This document shows positions 18,087 to 26,018 of a stretch of 32,000 bases of DNA, in pieces. The notes beneath the pieces are model-generated. The model did no database searches. It worked only from the letters and a program-made list of their open reading frames with translations, and had not been told where the DNA came from. The translations under genes and the position numbers were made by a program. The DNA is from Copranaerobaculum intestinale (GTDB taxonomy: Bacteria > Bacillota_I > Bacilli_A > Erysipelotrichales > Erysipelotrichaceae), in contig NZ_WUUQ01000002.1 in NCBI RefSeq assembly GCF_009831105.1, forward strand, positions 540,001 through 572,000, in the 5' to 3' direction. The stretch's first letter is position 1. Every line of letters starts with the position of its first letter.

Positions 18087-18725
18087 TTATCCAAAGTCGT
18101 AATGCTGTCCCTTGATCAAGAATATAGTATGTTCACATATGTTGATGATATGATCCTCACTGCGTTCGATGTTGCGAAGCATTGCTGAAATGGAGAACAG
18201 ATGACGATATGTTTCAATATCCTCTTTTTCCAGCAGCTTTGTTTTCAATTCATTCAGCAGAATCTTGTTTTTGCGATCATCCTGCGGTAAAGCAAAAGCA
18301 GCTTCGACATCACGTTTTTCATAGCTCTCTAACGCATTTTCCAGCATGCTGATATTCTGTCTTTCCATTTCTACAGCATATTCACATACAGAGGAGTCAA
18401 TCGCATCATGACAGATCATATAGGAAGCAATGCCTTTGGCATAGTCTCCAATGCGTTCAAGCTCGGTAGCAATTTTAATTGCGGTGATGATGCGCCGCAG
18501 ATCGGATGCAACCGGGGCAAGCAGGGCCAGTGCAGATATCGCCTGATCGTTTACTTCTTCTTCCAATTTATTAATATATTCATCGGACTGTATGACTGCC
18601 AGCGCGTTGTCGCGATTATTCTCCTCAAACAATGTCATCGCCTTTTCATGCATTCTGATAACTCGGCATCCCATTTTCATAAGGGTTGCTTCCATACAGT
18701 CAAGTTCCTGATCAATTTTTACCAT
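18087..18725 (-). CDS. phoU: Phosphate signalling/transport accessory protein PhoU
   Basis: This 212-aa protein has two PhoU repeats (ELERIGDYA and NIERSEDHI) and sits directly after pstB. Confidence 0.9.
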   Translation of the reverse strand: MVKIDQELDCMEATLMKMGCRVIRMHEKAMTLFEENNRDNALAVIQSDEYINKLEEEVNDQAISALALLAPVASDLRRIITAIKIATELERIGDYAKGIASYMICHDAIDSSVCEYAVEMERQNISMLENALESYEKRDVEAAFALPQDDRKNKILLNELKTKLLEKEDIETYRHLFSISAMLRNIERSEDHIINICEHTIFLIKGQHYDFG

Positions 18726-18736
18726 ATCGGTACCTC

Positions 18737-19492
18737 CTATCCAAATCGTCCGGTGATATAGTCTTCCGTGCGCTTATCAGCCGGATTTTGAAAAATATCT
18801 TGAGTCGTATTGAATTCCACTATTTCACCTAGTAGAAAGAATGCAGTATCATCACTTACCCGTGATGCCTGCTGCATCGAATGCGTGACAATGACGATTG
18901 TATATTCCTGCTTCAGTTCCTCGATCAATTCCTCGATCTTTGCGGTAGCGATCGGATCCAAGGCGCTGGTTGGTTCATCCATCAAAATGACCTCCGGTTC
19001 CATCGCAATCGTTCTGGCGATACACAGACGCTGCTGCTGTCCGCCGGATAAAGCCATCGCACTTTCATGAAGCCGATCATGAACCTCATCCCATAGGGCT
19101 GCCTGTTTCAAAGAACGCTCTACGATCTCACTCAGCAGCTTTTTATTTTTAATGCCCTGACAACGCGGCCCATAAGCAATATTATCAAAGATGGACATCG
19201 GGAACGGATTCGGCTTCTGAAAGACCATACCGACTTTTGTCCGCAGCTCGACGACATTGACCTGACGATCAAAGATATTCTCGTTGTCCATCATCACTTT
19301 GCCCTCTATGCGGCAGCCTTCAATCAGATCATTCATTCGGTTCAGACAGCGAAGAAAGGTGGATTTACCACAGCCGCTGGGGCCGATCAGCGCAGTGACA
19401 TGATGCTTACGGATATCGAGATTGAGCGATTTCAGCGCCTGCTTCGCTCCATAATATAAGTTCAGGTTTTCTACTTTAAAAATTGTTTCCAT
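18737..19492 (-). CDS. pstB: Phosphate ABC transporter ATP-binding protein
   Basis: It has Walker A (GPSGCGKST), the signature LSGGQQQR, Walker B ([11 protein letters not shown]) and a PstB-type C-terminus (DYITGRFG). Confidence 0.95.
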
Positions 19493-19501
19493 AAGTCCTC
19501 C

Positions 19502-20734
19502 TTAATGCCATTCCTTCTGCAGCCGGCGGCTGATCCATTTTACTCCGATATTCAGCAGGAAGACAAAGATCAATAAGATAATTGAAATTGCCGATGCCAG
19601 CTCGAAATTTGGCTGTTCTCCGCTCATGATCGACCAGATGTGCACGGCCATTGATGTACCTTGGGTGAGCAGTGTCGGAGCATCGCTGATAAAGGTTCCC
19701 ATCGTATAAATGAGGGCAGCGGATTCACCAATCACCCGGCCAATGCTTAAGAGCACGCCAGACAGAATGCCCGGCACCGCACATGGTAATATGATCTTGA
19801 ATATTGTCTGAGATTGATTGGCACCCAACGCCAGAGATGCATCCCGCAGATTCTGCGGTACGACCAAAAGCGCTTCTTCGGTCGCACGGATAATGGTCGG
19901 CAGCAGTATGATCGACATCGTAATGCCGCCCAGCAATACGTTGGTCGTGGTAGCGCCAAATGCCTTGGTAATCGGGAACAGCACGGTAACGCCCATCAGT
20001 CCGTAAATAATGCTCGGTACTCCGGTCAGCATCTCAATGCCGGTACGGATCAGCTGATTGACACGATTTTTTGTCGCATACTCATTCAAATAGATGGCTG
20101 CCGCAATGCCAATCGGCAGTGCAATCAGCAACGATACCAGAATCAGATATCCAGTTGCGATAATCGAACCTCGGATCCCTCCGCCGGCAGTTTTGACATA
20201 TGCGGATGTCAACGTTTCAGCCGTTTGATCGAGATTCTTTACCACAGTTTCAGCATTTTCCGACAAAATTGTGCCAGTGATGCCAGCCGTACCGTTTTGA
20301 TCCTCAAAGTCGATTTTTTCAAGTCGCATGCCAACCTGTAAATTCAGTTCTTTCCCCTTATTCTGTCCTGCACTCCCATCCACGACTGATGCAAATGGTG
20401 ATTTCGGATCAATATATTCGATCAGCACCTGTTTTTCTTTTTCATGGGAAACATGATCCACCAGCGCAATTCCCCATCTCCTTGAGAAATAGGCCTCATG
20501 ACTTAAATCATCCGGTTTTTCATATTGGGAAGCAGTATTGTGATCTGCTGAGCTCTCAACTATATAATTTTTCGACCAGTAATCATTTTTTAATAAATCC
20601 CAATTAATCAGCGAAGAACCTTTTGAAAAGGTAAAGACAAAGACCGATAATAGAATCAGCTCACAGAGCAGGCTGGCAAGATAGGTAATGCCGTTTAAGG
20701 CCATATCGCTCTTTCTGATATTGCATTTCTTCAT
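19502..20734 (-). CDS. pstA: Phosphate ABC transporter permease PstA, with a large insertion in extracytoplasmic loop 1
   Basis: The canonical PstA core starts at about residue 182 (AGGGIRGSIIATG...) and includes the EAA-type motif ASLALGANQSQTIFKIILP. At 410 aa it is much longer than the ~295 aa of E. coli and B. subtilis PstA. See findings. Confidence 0.85.
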   Translation of the reverse strand: MKKCNIRKSDMALNGITYLASLLCELILLSVFVFTFSKGSSLINWDLLKNDYWSKNYIVESSADHNTASQYEKPDDLSHEAYFSRRWGIALVDHVSHEKEKQVLIEYIDPKSPFASVVDGSAGQNKGKELNLQVGMRLEKIDFEDQNGTAGITGTILSENAETVVKNLDQTAETLTSAYVKTAGGGIRGSIIATGYLILVSLLIALPIGIAAAIYLNEYATKNRVNQLIRTGIEMLTGVPSIIYGLMGVTVLFPITKAFGATTTNVLLGGITMSIILLPTIIRATEEALLVVPQNLRDASLALGANQSQTIFKIILPCAVPGILSGVLLSIGRVIGESAALIYTMGTFISDAPTLLTQGTSMAVHIWSIMSGEQPNFELASAISIILLIFVFLLNIGVKWISRRLQKEWH

Positions 20735-21663
20735 CCGGACACCTTCCCTATCTTTTTACGAATTGCATTCAGCAGCAGATTGGACAGCAGAATAACCACC
20801 ATCAGCACGATGCCTACGGAAAAGCGGATATCATAATCCAGCCCGGTTGTTTCCTTCAAACCGGACAGCATGGTACTGGTCAGCGTGCGGGTGATATCAA
20901 ATGGATGAAAGGTCGGACCGAACATTTTATTGCCGGCAACCATCGCAACTGCTGTCGCTTCACCAAAAGCCCGTCCGATCCCCAGAATTGCTCCGGCAAA
21001 GATACCGGATTTCGCGCTGGTCAAAACCACCTTGAAGCGCGTTTGGGTCGGCGTAGCCCCAAGAGCCAGCGATCCCAGCTCAAGATCTCGATCAACCGCC
21101 TGAATGGCTGCTATAGATAAAGAGGTTATCGTCGGTGTGATCATAATTGCCAATAACAGAATGACCGCCAGCTGTGAACTTCCTCCAGCCGTTGATAAAC
21201 CAAGACCAGCTGCCATATTCATGACCAGCTTGGTGATGACACCGGCTGCGAATACACCGTATACCACAGAAGGAATCGATGCCAGCAGTTCAATGATCGT
21301 CGTCATGAATGATGCAATCGGTTTCGGTGCAATCTTTGCGATGAACAGTGCGCTCAGCACGGATATCGGAAATGCCAGCAGCAATGCCCCAAACGATGTC
21401 AGCAGCGTATTGATAACAATATAACCGACTCCATATACACCTTGATCCTGACGCCACTGAGTTCCAAACATAAATCGAACCAGTGATACATCACCGTTAA
21501 GAAACGGCGTGATACCCTTTTGTGTTATAAAAATGACAATGATCGCAATCGCTGAGGCCGAGACCAGCGCTGCGGTAAAAAACAGTGCCTTCAATATTTT
21601 ATCCCGGCGTATTTTATGTCGATTCCTTTTTTGATTTCGATATGACTTTACATTTGTTCTCAC
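20731..21663 (-). CDS. pstC: Phosphate ABC transporter permease PstC
   Basis: It has six TM helices and the EAA motif GSLALGATPTQTRFKVVLTSAKSG. It starts at a GTG preceded by AGGTGA and overlaps pstA by 4 nt. Confidence 0.85.
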   Translation of the reverse strand: MRTNVKSYRNQKRNRHKIRRDKILKALFFTAALVSASAIAIIVIFITQKGITPFLNGDVSLVRFMFGTQWRQDQGVYGVGYIVINTLLTSFGALLLAFPISVLSALFIAKIAPKPIASFMTTIIELLASIPSVVYGVFAAGVITKLVMNMAAGLGLSTAGGSSQLAVILLLAIMITPTITSLSIAAIQAVDRDLELGSLALGATPTQTRFKVVLTSAKSGIFAGAILGIGRAFGEATAVAMVAGNKMFGPTFHPFDITRTLTSTMLSGLKETTGLDYDIRFSVGIVLMVVILLSNLLLNAIRKKIGKVSG

Positions 21664-21690: not shown

Positions 21691-21712
21691 CAACAGCTCA
21701 TATGAGCTGCTG
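21691..21712 (-). other. Intercistronic stem-loop between pstS and pstC
   Basis: The minus-sense RNA reads CAGCAGCTCA-TA-TGAGCTGTTG, which pairs over 9-10 bp with one G-U. A U-rich but interrupted tract (TTGAATTTAT) follows. Confidence 0.5.
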
Positions 21713-21733: not shown

Positions 21734-22660
21734 CTACTTCACATCTTTCCAGTTTTTGATTTCACCGGTAAAGATTTGTTTGATCTGCTTTGCATTCAGT
21801 GAGGTAACCGCTGTATTCTGATTGCTGATGATCGCTACTACCGCATCGATACAGTACTGTCCGCTCATCATCGCATTCGCTGTATTTTCTTCACCCTCAA
21901 ATGCTCTTGAGGCAAAGCCGATATCCGCTTTATTCGGTCCATCCTTCTCAGCTCCCAATACCCGCTTGTAGCCATCGCTGGAACCGGATTGATTCATAGC
22001 GAATTTATAATTGCCGGCCATCGGTGAGAATGCTTCCAAAGCTCCCTTTAAGGTTTTCTCTACCGAAGTGGAGCCCGCCGTTTGAATCGTGATCGCACTG
22101 TTGTCCTGATCGACAATCGGATGATTCTTTTTCAATTCAGCCCACGGCTTGCCCTTGGATTTATCAACGATACCGCCATTTTTCTCAACTACCAGCATCC
22201 CTTCCGTGGAATTTTGCATATAGTCTAAGAAAGCCGCTACCAGCTGCTCCTTAGCATCACTTCCGAAATCACCCTTGGCACGGGTTACAAATTCAAATGG
22301 ACGCTGCAGCTTGTAAGTATTATCCAATACTGTATCCTGACTTGGCTTTACTCCATCATAGGCAAGCGGTGTAACCTTGTTTGCTTCAAAATCCGTCGAT
22401 AATGAAACATAACCGATTCCATATTTGTCAGTACCTACCTTTGTAGCCATATCTCCGTTGGAATCCACAGTAACTGCCTTTTTCGTCAGTTTTCCCTCAA
22501 AATCATTTCCCTTTTCGAATGCTTCTCGAGTACCGCTTGATGCATCACGGGAGTAAATTTGGATCTTCCCTTCAAAATCCTTACTGCCGGTTTCTTTTCC
22601 ATCATTGACACCACACCCGACTAAGAGCAGCGCCATTGCTGCGACAAGCAACTTTTTCAT
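21734..22660 (-). CDS. pstS: Phosphate-binding lipoprotein PstS (PBP_like_2 type), apparently circularly permuted
   Basis: It has a lipoprotein signal peptide with a lipobox (LLLVGC). The PstS motifs SSGT, GIGYVSL, AGSTSV, SGSSDG, DIGFASR and IFTGEIKNWKDV are all present but in non-canonical order (see findings). A AAGGAGG SD lies upstream. Confidence 0.85.
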   Translation of the reverse strand: MKKLLVAAMALLLVGCGVNDGKETGSKDFEGKIQIYSRDASSGTREAFEKGNDFEGKLTKKAVTVDSNGDMATKVGTDKYGIGYVSLSTDFEANKVTPLAYDGVKPSQDTVLDNTYKLQRPFEFVTRAKGDFGSDAKEQLVAAFLDYMQNSTEGMLVVEKNGGIVDKSKGKPWAELKKNHPIVDQDNSAITIQTAGSTSVEKTLKGALEAFSPMAGNYKFAMNQSGSSDGYKRVLGAEKDGPNKADIGFASRAFEGEENTANAMMSGQYCIDAVVAIISNQNTAVTSLNAKQIKQIFTGEIKNWKDVK

Positions 22661-22700
22661 AATCTTTCCTCCTTGATTACGGGCATATCATATCGTTGTT

Positions 22701-22742
22701 TTATTACTAAAAAATGAATGTTCTGTTAAATTCCTGTTAAAT
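22701..22742 (-). promoter_or_regulatory. Candidate Pho box and promoter of the pst operon
   Basis: The 9-bp direct repeat CTGTTAAAT occurs at 22723-22731 and 22734-22742. On the pstS-sense strand this reads TTAACA-N5-TTAACA-N5-TTCATT with 11-bp phasing, which matches the B. subtilis PhoP consensus TT(A/T/C)ACA. The proximal TTAACA lies 17 nt from a TAATAA -10 candidate (22706-22701). Confidence 0.5.
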
Positions 22743-22936: not shown

Positions 22937-24100
22937 ATGAATGATAAAAACAAACGACTGGCCTTATCGCTGGTAGAAAATAAATTATTCAGCAATCCAA
23001 CACTGACGTATGCACAGATCGAAAAGCGGACAGGATATTCACGCAGACAGCTGCTCCGCTTTGCCAAAAATTTAAAAATATCCGATAAGGAAACCATGCT
23101 GCGCCACGGCAATACCGGGAAACGTCCGGCGGCTTCAGCGACAACAGATGAAATACGTTTTCTGAATGAATTTAAAAAGCTGCATCCCCAGACAACCATT
23201 GCAGAGTTCAAAGCAATCTATGAAAAAGAAGTGATTGAGAATCCCGCCTATGCGAAAGAGGTTCGCAAATATCATCTTAAATCACGCAGCTACTCTTTCT
23301 TTCAGCGTTTTTATCAGGATTATCATCACCAATCTCCAGTCGTAAGCAGTAGGAATGAGGAAATGAAAAGGGTTCTCTTCAATGAAGGGAAGGAGTATGG
23401 AAGTTGTGTCTGTATATCTTCAATGCTGTATACCTGGATTCATACTGATCAAGTATGCTGTCTGCATCTATTGTATGATGAAGTCACCAATTCCTTGTTA
23501 TGCGGCTGCTTTTCACTCCATGAGGAGGAAAACTGTTATCTGTCCTTGCTGAAACAGCTATTGGTACAGTATGGGATTCCGGAAAATCTAATTTTTATAG
23601 TCGCGGAAACATCAATCTGTAATAACCTTTGTGGTAAGCTGAAGCGTATCTGCAAACGCCTTGGAATGGAGCTGCTGATGAATCCAATTGATCATCGCAG
23701 CAACAAGGTCTTTGAACAGGTTGCCTGGCTTATAAAAAAGAATCCGCTGTATCTCGTAAATTCATCTTATGAGGAAATCAATCGCTATTTCAATGAAGCG
23801 TTCATTCCAGTTTATAATCGCTGCTATGCCCGTCCTACCCTGGCTGACAACGGCTTTGTACCGCTTCCTGATAATGTGGAACGCCCCTATCTGATCATGA
23901 AGTTTCTGCGTAAAACTGACCATCAGGGCAGATTATCCTTTCACAGTCAGCTCTACGAGCTTTATGATGAATACGGCAGTAATGTGAACCTGATCGATAC
24001 CGAAATTGTCTTACAGGAGGATATATTTAAAAATACCTTACGTGTCTACTATGGTAAACAGAAGCTGTATCCGGTTCTCTGCATGACCGTAACCCAATAA
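22937..24100 (+). CDS. Transposase-like protein (N-terminal HTH plus a degenerate integrase/DDE-like core), possibly domesticated or decaying
   Basis: The N-terminal HTH (TYAQIEKRTGYSRRQLLRFAK) is followed by HGNTGKRP. The pattern LHLLYDEVTN...YLSLLKQLLVQYGIPENLIF resembles the ISNCY-type transposases I recall (GELWQxDAS...LHxxIDDATG...YGIPxxxYSDRHTIF). See findings for the apparent catalytic-residue substitutions. Confidence 0.45.
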   Translation: MNDKNKRLALSLVENKLFSNPTLTYAQIEKRTGYSRRQLLRFAKNLKISDKETMLRHGNTGKRPAASATTDEIRFLNEFKKLHPQTTIAEFKAIYEKEVIENPAYAKEVRKYHLKSRSYSFFQRFYQDYHHQSPVVSSRNEEMKRVLFNEGKEYGSCVCISSMLYTWIHTDQVCCLHLLYDEVTNSLLCGCFSLHEEENCYLSLLKQLLVQYGIPENLIFIVAETSICNNLCGKLKRICKRLGMELLMNPIDHRSNKVFEQVAWLIKKNPLYLVNSSYEEINRYFNEAFIPVYNRCYARPTLADNGFVPLPDNVERPYLIMKFLRKTDHQGRLSFHSQLYELYDEYGSNVNLIDTEIVLQEDIFKNTLRVYYGKQKLYPVLCMTVTQ

Positions 24101-24123
24101 AAAAGACAGGTTATCACCTGTCA
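24098..24123 (-). terminator. Rho-independent terminator of phoR
   Basis: The minus strand reads GACAGGT-GATA-ACCTGTC followed by TTTTTT. The hairpin includes the phoR stop, and the T-run overlaps the stop codon of the convergent transposase-like gene. Confidence 0.7.
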
Positions 24124-25347
24124 AATGCATTTCAATTTAATATGAAAAGCGGTTCCTTGATTAACTTTGCTTTCTACCTGAATGGTTGCGCCATGGGCTT
24201 CAACAATGGATTTCACGATTGCTAAGCCAAGCCCTGAGCCACCGGTATGACGGGAACGGTCGCTGTCGACTCGATAAAAACGCTCGAAGATCCGATCAAG
24301 CTGTTGATCACTCATGCCGACGCCTTCATCCTGGATCGTTACAATGACATAATCATCATCACCCCGGGTACGAACCGTAATGGTACCGTGATCACTGTAT
24401 TTAATCGCATTAGATAATAGATTTACAAGAATCTGAGAAAATTTCTGCGGATCCAAGAAGATTTGTCCACACCAGCCAAAATCCGTCTTAAGTACCAGTT
24501 TTTTCTCCTGCGCCAGCGGTTCCATAGTTTTCACGGCGGTATTCAACAGTTCTTCCAACAATACATGATGCCGGTCAAGAATCGGATCACTGATAGACAT
24601 GCGGGATAATTCCAGCATATCCTTGACAATCAGATCCAACCGCATGATTTCTTTTTCAATCTGCTCCAGAAAATCTTTCTGTACCGCGTCATCATTAAAA
24701 TCATCACGATTCAAAATTTCGACCATGCCGCGGATCGCTGCGATCGGCGTTTTTAATTCATGCGAAGCATCCGCAATAAAACGCTTCTGCATCTTTTCCC
24801 CAAGCAATGTCCGTGTAATATCCTGTATCAGAATCAGACAGCCGCTGAATCTGTCGTGTGACAGGATCGGCACACTGACTAATTCATAATCCCGCTCACG
24901 AATCCGTTTCTGTTTGTTTAGTTCCTTCTCAAAAATAAACGCATCTTTCAAAAACTCCTGGATGGTCTTATCAAAGCCATTCTTCAAATATGTCATTCCT
25001 TTGATATCCGTTAAAGAACCAAAGGTTTCCATACGAGTATTATATAGGACGATCTTGCCAAACTGATCAAGCATCAGAATCGGATACGGCAGTGCCTGAA
25101 CCATGGTCAGCAGCTGTTTCTTCTTCATTTTGGCATCATTGGTAGTCGATCGGATCTGATTCATGAGATCCTGGCTTTCCTTTCGTCCTTCTTTTTCGAT
25201 TTTCGTTTCACTGAAAAACCAGATGGCTCCGCAGCCAATCACCAATATGGTGATTAAAACATAATCATTGATTGCAAAATACGCCTGTAAGGAAATGCCG
25301 CAGATCCAGGCAGCCAGCAGCAGTAATACTTTTGTTTCGGTTTTCAA
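24121..25347 (-). CDS. phoR: Phosphate-regulon sensor histidine kinase
   Basis: It has two N-terminal TM helices, a PAS-like segment, the H-box FIADASHELKTPI, and N, G1 and G2 boxes (LLSNAIKYS, DEGVGM, GGSGLGLAI). The symbol is assigned from context (pst, phoU and phoP adjacent). Confidence 0.8.
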   Translation of the reverse strand: MKTETKVLLLLAAWICGISLQAYFAINDYVLITILVIGCGAIWFFSETKIEKEGRKESQDLMNQIRSTTNDAKMKKKQLLTMVQALPYPILMLDQFGKIVLYNTRMETFGSLTDIKGMTYLKNGFDKTIQEFLKDAFIFEKELNKQKRIRERDYELVSVPILSHDRFSGCLILIQDITRTLLGEKMQKRFIADASHELKTPIAAIRGMVEILNRDDFNDDAVQKDFLEQIEKEIMRLDLIVKDMLELSRMSISDPILDRHHVLLEELLNTAVKTMEPLAQEKKLVLKTDFGWCGQIFLDPQKFSQILVNLLSNAIKYSDHGTITVRTRGDDDYVIVTIQDEGVGMSDQQLDRIFERFYRVDSDRSRHTGGSGLGLAIVKSIVEAHGATIQVESKVNQGTAFHIKLKCI

Positions 25348-26018
25348 TCATTCACCTCCAGTATGTAGCCTACTCCCCGTGATGAGCGTATGGCCACATC
25401 CGCCTTGCTGAGTTTGCTGCGGAGCTTAAAAATATGCACATCGACGATACGAGTATCCCCATCATAATCAAATCCCCATATATCGTTTAAAATCTGATCT
25501 CGGGACAGTACGATCCCTTGATTGCGAACCAGATATTCCAATAGATCAAATTCCTTTTTCGTACAGGTCAGCACTTCCTTATTCACGGTAATTTCCCGGC
25601 GCCGTAAAGAAATATGCACCTTCCCGGCATCTAAGCCATCCGCTTCCCGTTTGCCTAAACGCTTTACGTGTGCCTGGATACGCGCCAAAAGCTCCCGCGG
25701 TGAAAATGGTTTCGTGATATAATCATCAACCCCGGCATCAAAAGCCCGCAAAATATCGCTCTCATCATCGCGTGCTGTCAGCATGATCATAATGCTGTCA
25801 ATCCCGGCACTGCGAAATTTCTGCACCAGCGTAATGCCATCCATTCCCGGCAGCATCCAATCGATGATCATCACATCGAAATGCTCCTGCATGCCTGACC
25901 GCAGCGCTTCCTCACCGTCTCTGCACTCTACGATTTCATAATCGGCACGCAATAGATCATAAGCGATGATCTTGCGAATATTTTCTTCATCCTCAATTAA
26001 TAAAATTCTTACTGACAT
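25344..26018 (-). CDS. phoP: OmpR-family response regulator of the phosphate regulon
   Basis: It has a receiver domain (ILLIEDE, IIDWMLPGMDG, KPF) and a winged-helix output domain (LTCTKKEFDLLEYL...RGVGY). It overlaps phoR by 4 nt and phoH by 10 nt. Confidence 0.8.
   Translation of the reverse strand: MSVRILLIEDEENIRKIIAYDLLRADYEIVECRDGEEALRSGMQEHFDVMIIDWMLPGMDGITLVQKFRSAGIDSIMIMLTARDDESDILRAFDAGVDDYITKPFSPRELLARIQAHVKRLGKREADGLDAGKVHISLRRREITVNKEVLTCTKKEFDLLEYLVRNQGIVLSRDQILNDIWGFDYDGDTRIVDVHIFKLRSKLSKADVAIRSSRGVGYILEVND

Follow-up and report, generated by a model that had tools for sequence, protein, structure and literature searches.

Results

A circularly permuted pstS gene heads a pst operon in Copranaerobaculum intestinale

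We analyzed a 32,000-nucleotide (nt) stretch of the C. intestinale genome (assembly GCF_009831105.1, contig NZ_WUUQ01000002.1, positions 540,001 to 572,000; hereafter the window, whose own numbering is used throughout), which carries a pstS-pstC-pstA-pstB-phoU operon on its minus strand. The first gene of this operon, pstS, encodes a predicted phosphate-binding lipoprotein whose chain order is the subject of this work. Its open reading frame (ORF) occupies positions 21734 to 22660 of the minus strand, exactly where an earlier note made from the letters alone had placed it, and specifies 308 amino acids and a stop codon in an intact frame that opens with ATG. A ribosome-binding site, AAGGAGG (22668 to 22674), lies 7 nt before the start codon. 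The protein begins with a lipoprotein signal peptide read from the sequence, MKKLLVAAMALLLVGC (22613 to 22660), with the lipobox LLVGC and Cys16. This cysteine is kept in at least 90% of 64 permuted homologues, which are 29 to 69% identical to the C. intestinale protein and on which the conservation of the ligand site was also assessed.

The canonical PstS chain can be divided into three modules, a-b-c: module a ends with ...NWxDV, module b runs from the R-x-x-x-S-G-T strand and loop to ...RPF, and module c comprises the C-terminal helices and tail. In the C. intestinale protein, module b comes first (residues 28 to 130; 22271 to 22579). It opens the canonical C-terminal half, matches the PstS family model TIGR02136 from position 161 on, and carries the motifs IQIYSR38DASS42G43T44RE, GIGYVSL and YKLQRPF. 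Module c follows (residues 131 to 187; 22100 to 22270), with the canonical C-terminal helices and a lineage-specific tail (residues 166 to 187); TIGR02136 coverage stops at residue 162. Module a, the canonical N-terminal half, closes the chain (residues 188 to 308; 21737 to 22099; TIGR02136 positions 34 to 155, PF12849 positions 8 to 125), with the motifs ITIQTAG196S197T198S199V, SGS227SDG, DIGFAS251R252 and D272 and the C-terminal IFTGEIKNWKDVK.

Two profile families report the same swap. The protein passes the gathering threshold of Pfam PF12849 (PBP_like_2; 27 bits) with 86.3 bits (E = 3.8e-24) in two stretches. Searched whole, its best PF12849 match covers residues 189 to 306 (profile positions 8 to 125), and searched half by half, residues 30 to 149 match positions 130 to 264 and residues 189 to 306 again match positions 8 to 125. 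With TIGR02136, the best match of the whole protein covers residues 29 to 162 (positions 160 to 291), while the separate halves match at residues 30 to 162 (positions 161 to 291) and residues 185 to 307 (positions 34 to 155). The native protein gave no start-to-end colinear match to TIGR02136, the order being swapped, and its score of 141.2 bits lies below the cut-off of 206.6. The swapped motif order that the earlier note had read from the sequence is recovered by both Pfam and NCBIfam as two partial matches in swapped order. We also built an artificial de-permuted construct, in which residues 186 to 308 are followed by residues 27 to 185. This construct matched TIGR02136 in a single stretch (positions 40 to 291 of 295; 152.8 bits, compared to 141.2 for the native protein) and PF12849 from position 11 to position 264 of 267 (100.7 compared to 86.3 bits).

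Pairwise comparison gave the same picture. When five canonical-order PstS proteins were doubled head-to-tail, each aligned with the C. intestinale protein as one BLASTP high-scoring segment pair (HSP) that runs across the junction, as the note had predicted; for doubled homologue P0132, residues 18 to 307 aligned with positions 119 to 411 (43% identity over 297 columns, E = 1e-80). A single copy of a canonical PstS instead gave two HSPs in swapped order, and the canonical PstS structures 4Q8R, 4GD5, 1TWY, 4N13, 4EXL and 4ECF likewise gave two swapped aligned stretches each. A natural circular permutant is defined by this combination, a continuous alignment with a doubled relative and two swapped alignments with a single copy, and all five canonical proteins produced it. 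We conclude that the PstS encoded at 21734 to 22660 is circularly permuted, in the order [signal peptide-Cys]-b-c-a. Little was lost at the new termini: only about 5 model positions are missing (TIGR02136 156 to 160), so the chain does stop, as had been proposed, where the canonical chain enters the R-x-x-x-S-G-T strand and loop, and the break falls in the loop that follows the ...IFTGEIKNWKDV helix and precedes the IQIYSRDASSGTRE strand-loop.

The junction is the lineage's own C-terminal tail

Residues 166 to 189 had been described in the earlier note as a charged linker of about 24 residues between the two swapped halves. A segment does lie there, but nothing was inserted: canonical-order relatives already have this stretch, as their C-terminal tail. 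The canonical-order protein P0132 has the C terminus ...PIWENIRSNHPIVDRQ, homologous to the tail of the C. intestinale protein; the same tail closes the P0132 chain (...NAPIWENIRSNHPIVDRQ-stop), and P0160, P0172 and P0195 end similarly. Because canonical-order relatives end with this same segment, the connector is the lineage's own C-terminal tail. Residues 166 to 187 (DKSKGKPWAELKKNHPIVDQDN) are kept among close relatives, in which W173 is invariant. The old C terminus is joined directly to the old N terminus, with ...HPIVDQ running straight into DNSAITIQTAGSTSV. In the structural model described below, module c forms helices at residues 135 to 150, 152 to 160, 173 to 179 and 181 to 184, modeled with a predicted local distance difference test score (pLDDT) of 97 to 99; the last two belong to the tail.

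The permuted chain retains the fold and the ligand site

An AlphaFold2 model built on an alignment of 64 sequences adopts the periplasmic-binding-protein fold with high confidence (pLDDT 93.3, predicted template modeling score 0.86), in line with expectation. Low confidence is limited to the signal peptide and tether (residues 1 to 30), and residues 17 to 29 probably form a flexible tether in the model. In a Foldseek search of the PDB, the best match by far was 4H1X, a pneumococcal PstS (E = 2.2e-24, 289 columns, root-mean-square deviation [rmsd] 2.6 Å, 28% identity). As Foldseek is a sequential aligner, the template modeling scores of 0.87 (normalized to the target) and 0.74 (normalized to the query) reflect the same chain order in both proteins, and phmmer aligned residues 28 to 308 with residues 6 to 265 of 4H1X in a single stretch (E = 1.7e-16). 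The canonical PstS structures 4GD5 and 1TWY aligned over only about 90 columns (rmsd 1.2 to 2.4 Å), which is what a sequential comparison is expected to give for a permuted protein.

The ligand-binding loops, which the earlier note held to be retained in full, are indeed all present. Among the 64 permuted homologues, R38, S42, G43, G83, Y84, G196, S197, S227, S251 and D272 are invariant, with T44, R45, T198, S199 and R252 kept in at least 90%. These columns make up the G-S-T-S, G-S-S/G-D, A-S-R and R-x-x-x-S-G-T motifs and align with those of phosphate-bound 4GD5; their counterparts in Escherichia coli PstS (1IXH) we take to be T10/F11, S38, D56, R135 and S139 to T141. Since all phosphate-ligand motifs are kept, phosphate binding in the inter-lobe cleft is expected.

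Domain II of E. coli PstS reportedly consists of residues 77 to 225 and 259 to 321, according to structures from the Quiocho laboratory. By homology with that protein, the new termini would sit in lobe II, in which case the lipid anchor would lie beside the R-x-x-x-SGT strand of lobe II and not beside strand beta-1 of lobe I.

The permuted protein recurs across Erysipelotrichaceae and Clostridia

The identical 308-residue PstS is present in the same context on 9 independent contigs (ENA, NCBI GCA_902471775.1 and Logan assemblies), which excludes the misassembly that had been named as a possible cause of the unusual order. Full-length colinear homologues occur in Erysipelotrichaceae and in [Clostridium] innocuum; among the 120 homologues listed, the first is 99% identical and all others are 62 to 72% identical. 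The names given to homologues by their sources are mostly "substrate-binding domain-containing protein," and such generic names fit with a TIGR02136 score below the cut-off.

A scan of one genome per species, with a 12-sequence alignment as the query, found a relative in at least 183 genomes, of which the best 80 loci were kept. All of these best 80 loci align across the junction, at 51 to 72% identity, and they come from Erysipelotrichaceae and Clostridia, so the permutation is clade-wide. The genera represented include Dielma, Holdemania, Merdibacter, Longicatena, Amedibacillus, Anaerorhabdus and Erysipelothrix, as well as Youngiibacter, Proteiniclasticum, Fastidiosipila/Saccharofermentanales and Helcococcus. 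Gene context is kept along with the sequence: pstC-pstA-pstB, usually with phoU, follows pstS in nearly all of the 83 loci examined, wherever enough flanking DNA is available, and phoH, a response regulator and a histidine kinase precede pstS in about two dozen related loci, as they do in the window.

Three cyclic orders and tandem fusions coexist among close relatives

An exhaustive representative search with PstS gave 2369 matches at E ≤ 1e-3. We classified the order of 150 of these by the half-modules of the C. intestinale protein, obtaining 67 permuted proteins (C-N), 5 tandem permuted proteins (about 600 residues), 45 proteins of order N-C, 8 tandem N-C proteins (about 530 residues) and 1 triple protein (789 residues), the remainder being fragments. 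When the classification was repeated with three modules (a, residues 188 to 308; b, residues 28 to 130; c, residues 131 to 187), a third order, c-a-b, was uncovered, to which several of the two-module N-C proteins belong. The c-a-b proteins (among them P0138, P0141, P0152, P0175, P0198, P0199, P0209, P0222 and P0247, along with locus L082, 6001 to 6984) place the C-terminal helices and tail directly after the lipobox, continue with the canonical N-terminal half, and end after ...RPFxxxTR. Segment by segment, they are 40 to 49% identical to the C. intestinale protein.

A separate lipoprotein signal peptide is present in each protein of different order whose sequence we inspected, and a pstS-pstC-pstA-pstB-phoU arrangement is found on the contigs of P0132 (a-b-c), P0138 (c-a-b, on a 1.7-Mb contig) and P0121 (tandem b-c-a-b-c-a).

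The tandem and triple fusions are in-frame proteins of 527 to 789 residues with a single signal peptide, and they occur in both cyclic registers: C-N-C-N (P0121, P0122, P0124, P0127 and P0200) and N-C-N-C (P0156, P0159, P0171, P0181, P0191, P0194, P0264 and P0266), with P0158 as the triple fusion and locus L083 (4540 to 6402) listed with the tandem fusions. The units are joined through an acidic spacer in P0121 and directly in P0122, and they are nearly identical to each other in P0124 and P0127. A further protein, P0216 (416 residues, C-N-C), was considered as a half-truncated intermediate and rejected; it starts mid-protein and is therefore what a contig end has left of a tandem canonical fusion. 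If permutation proceeds by duplication and truncation, double and triple fusions are the intermediates to be expected. Tandem duplication and fusion, with subsequent loss of the outer parts, present themselves as the obvious mechanism; every cyclic order can be found inside the fusions of either tandem register.

To compare the orders on equal terms, we rotated every unit to a-b-c and aligned the resulting 128 units over 253 columns. Nearest neighbors of different order were found at many places in this alignment, and BLASTP confirmed swapped segment pairs at 47 to 72% identity, for example between P0199 (c-a-b) and P0204 (b-c-a), between P0160 (a-b-c) and P0185 (b-c-a), and between P0132 and P0129. 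Fitch parsimony on neighbor-joining trees required 17 order changes (15 to 23 across 100 bootstraps), compared to 39 to 52 with shuffled labels, a count that is rough given the simple trees and a sample biased towards the C. intestinale protein. Several independent order switches are nevertheless hard to avoid on these sequences. We are somewhat inclined to regard the Bacillota PstS lineage as a hotspot of recurrent circular permutation, with three orders among orthologues 45 to 70% identical and about 15 or more switches between them.

Operon, neighboring genes and regulation

Downstream of pstS and on the same strand lie pstC (20731 to 21663; TIGR02138, 222.9 bits, cut-off 196.45) and pstA (19502 to 20734; TIGR00974, 222.9 bits, cut-off 193.45), which encode the permeases, followed by the ATPase gene pstB (18737 to 19492; TIGR00972, 430.9 bits, cut-off 343.2) and phoU (18087 to 18725; TIGR02135, 155.2 bits, cut-off 130.25), so that PstC, PstA, PstB and PhoU all exceed their NCBIfam equivalog cut-offs. 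No second pstS was found when the window was searched for one. PstA is 410 residues long and matches its model over residues 176 to 406 only; an extra hydrophilic segment of about 130 residues (approximately residues 45 to 175) follows its first transmembrane helix and may be a lineage-specific extracytoplasmic domain. PstA is also long beside a-b-c, c-a-b and tandem PstS relatives (399, 459 and 428 residues). The 70-nt gap between pstS and pstC contains a perfect 16-nt palindromic hairpin, CAGCTCATATGAGCTG (21694 to 21709, minus strand), which could act as a partial terminator or mRNA stabilizer that lets pstS expression outpace that of pstCAB.

Upstream of pstS, the minus strand encodes a PhoR/PnpS-like histidine kinase (24121 to 25347; Pfam HisKA and HATPase_c; best NCBIfam match PnpS, below cut-off) and a PhoB/PhoP-like response regulator of the OmpR/PhoB type (25344 to 26018; Pfam Response_reg and Trans_reg_C; best NCBIfam match PhoB, below cut-off), and phoH also lies upstream on the same strand as these two genes. 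A 387-residue ORF on the plus strand (22937 to 24100) separates the pstS promoter from the phoR-like kinase gene. It has no Pfam match and a weak likeness to ISNCY transposases (NF033594, E = 4.8e-17, 62 bits, cut-off 250), and a search for terminal inverted repeats around it found none that were convincing. The ORF is present in 2 of 3 inspected contigs that carry the identical PstS, with a truncated ORF at that position in the third, and is absent from all 83 related loci, which are mostly from other species; from this absence, it looks like a recent insertion.

Bacillus PhoP boxes consist of TT(A/T/C)ACA repeats with an 11-bp period. A triple direct repeat that resembles them, TTAACA-n5-TTAACA-n5-TTCATT, also of 11-bp period, precedes pstS (22713 to 22740, minus strand) and was found in a pattern search with 0 mismatches. 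A candidate -10 hexamer read from the sequence, TATGAT (22687 to 22692, minus strand), lies 20 bp downstream of the repeats. A sigma-70 consensus scan called no promoter at this site and paired TATGAT with no -35 element, a result that is expected for an activator-dependent promoter and proves nothing. A weaker match with 1 mismatch (24119 to 24146, minus strand) overlaps the end of the histidine kinase gene and is probably due to chance.

Discussion

A permuted phosphate-binding subunit and its probable origin

We consider it very probable that the PstS of the window is the lipid-anchored substrate-binding subunit of a PstSCAB-PhoU phosphate ATP-binding cassette (ABC) importer, with a type II fold that has been cyclically shifted, and it is almost certainly a functional PstS. 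Most likely, pstS was duplicated in tandem and the copies fused in frame, after which each copy lost one of its ends. The old C and N termini are joined via the lineage's own C-terminal tail, and the chain now starts and stops in a surface loop, between the NWKDV helix and the IQIYSRD strand, leaving the lipid anchor to hang from what we take to be lobe II instead of lobe I. Phosphate would be bound in the inter-lobe cleft and passed to PstC and PstA as usual, and expression would presumably be under PhoR/PhoP control.

Several points weigh against parts of this account. The function of this PstS is argued from sequence, model, gene context and analogy with the pneumococcal Pst2 system. The de-permuted construct, at 152.8 bits, still falls below the TIGR02136 cut-off of 206.6, so the lineage is divergent as well as permuted. 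Within the clade, either b-c-a or a-b-c could be ancestral. Finally, the Pho-box-like pattern, for which about 0.16 chance matches would be expected in the window at 1 mismatch or fewer, was written after the site had been seen and is suggestive only.

As tandem double pstS fusions exist in relatives, a truncated remnant is conceivable a priori, and the gene might then be a pseudogene left by a tandem duplication, or else an artefact of misjoined pstS pieces. We regard this as vanishingly unlikely: separate projects yielded contigs with the exact protein in an unchanged context, colinear homologues occur in the best 80 of at least 183 species genomes with a relative, the junction is both conserved and modeled at pLDDT 97 to 99, a crystal structure with the same arrangement exists (4H1X), and the ORF is intact, with a signal peptide, a ribosome-binding site and a stop codon. 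A different origin, in which the C-terminal half of one binding protein was fused to the N-terminal half of another, has been raised by the authors of work on the Treponema pallidum lipoprotein TpMglB-2, whose permuted part was poorly conserved (PMC4990184). For PstS, such a mosaic appears extremely unlikely, as the two halves are 44.4% and 44.4% identical to a single canonical-order protein, P0132, which when doubled yields one uninterrupted HSP; ten other nearest-neighbor pairs of different order behave likewise, and tandem fusions of near-identical units exist (P0124 and P0127).

It is also conceivable that the protein binds another ligand, such as phosphite, phosphonate, arsenate or another oxyanion, or that it serves mainly as a sensor or adhesin. 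The whole-protein score lies under the PstS family cut-off, PF12849 is a broad family, and NCBI names the homologues only as substrate-binding domain-containing proteins, all of which would leave room for such a role. It nonetheless seems very unlikely to us, because the PstC, PstA, PstB and PhoU partners are recognized at equivalog thresholds, the phosphate motifs of the TIGR02136 type are invariant and align with phosphate-bound 4GD5, a PhoR/PhoP-like pair and phoH lie upstream, and pneumococcal Pst2 transports inorganic phosphate (Pi). A permuted, phosphate-binding PstS remains the account that we favor.

Implications

The permuted PstS group is present in many gut Erysipelotrichaceae and Clostridia, and colinear family models under-score all of it, though its members are the PstS proteins of otherwise complete pst operons; a permutation-aware model would mend this annotation. 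It is very rare for both forms of a natural circular permutation to be extant at high sequence identity together with the tandem fusions that link them. Because all three orders survive here along with double and triple fusions, the route by duplication, fusion and truncation can be reconstructed and tested, and recurrent permutation of PstS, if true, would offer a natural and sequence-transparent system in which to test the ways that permutation arises. Similarly, a shift of the anchor from lobe I to lobe II, if true, would be a natural experiment on tether geometry and PstCA docking.

The permuted PstS family is widespread, and a structure of it has been available since 2012 (4H1X); what is apparently new is that the permutation is recognized as such and, above all, that it recurs in three registers whose tandem intermediates still exist. 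The earlier note had left it open whether such a subfamily was already catalogued. As a molecule it is, in the form of the solved and apparently unpublished crystal structure 4H1X, but nothing that we found in the literature, Pfam or NCBIfam records it as a permutation. A search of the full-text open-access literature found no paper that describes a permuted PstS, although absence there is not proof, and none that cites the entry code 4H1X or treats the topology of PstS2. No model in Pfam or in NCBIfam release 20 is colinear with the permuted protein, and permutation goes unmentioned in two recent papers on PstS structures (PMC12421899; PMC13614923).

Comparison with known systems

The closest known counterpart is 4H1X itself, PstS 2 of Streptococcus pneumoniae TIGR4 (SP_2084; released 2012-10-17), which has the same b-c-a order with breakpoints within a few residues; its chain starts ...GTIEVISRENGSGTR and ends ...LTTWDKIK. 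Like the C. intestinale gene, the pneumococcal one is the first gene of its pst operon. The pneumococcal protein differs in having a shorter connector without the PW...HPIV tail, is only 28% identical, and after rotation falls on another branch than the C. intestinale clade; the two permutations may have a common or a separate origin. Pst2, the transporter that PstS2 serves, is active in Pi import, and Pst1 and Pst2 have been called "evolutionarily distinct" with no mention of a permutation (PMC4913102). The permutation explains, at the sequence level, why pneumococcal PstS1 and PstS2 give that impression.

Canonical short PstS proteins (4Q8R and 4GD5 of Clostridium perfringens and the metagenomic P0132) share the fold modules, ligand motifs and operon role of the permuted protein. 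P0132, 44% identical in both halves and closed by the same C-terminal tail, differs in its order, a-b-c. In canonical PstS, the anchor precedes strand beta-1 of lobe I, whereas in the C. intestinale protein it is followed by the strand before the R-x-x-x-SGT loop.

Among periplasmic binding proteins of the type II fold, natural circular permutation has a precedent in the OpuAC family. The CPSARST study of 2008 reported circular permutation among type II binding proteins, relating Bacillus subtilis OpuAC (2B4L) to ProX (1R9L and 1SW1), ModA and CysB (PMC2395249). In our structural search, OpuAC entries (2B4L, 2B4M, 5NXX and 3CHG) were the next-best full-length colinear matches after 4H1X, which suggests that OpuAC and the modeled PstS share a similar chain order, despite other ligands and a sequence identity of 16 to 17%. 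The OpuAC-type relationship is known by structure only and between distant proteins, whereas the PstS permutants are orthologues 45 to 70% identical.

A natural permutation that retains ligand binding is also found in another ABC binding protein, the T. pallidum glucose-binding lipoprotein TpMglB-2 (Tp0684), classed as "Type Ic / Cluster Bc" (PMC4990184). That protein adopts the type I fold and binds a sugar, and in sequence its permuted segment hardly resembles the canonical one (PMC4990184). The origin of TpMglB-2 is for this reason unclear, whereas that of the permuted PstS is transparent.

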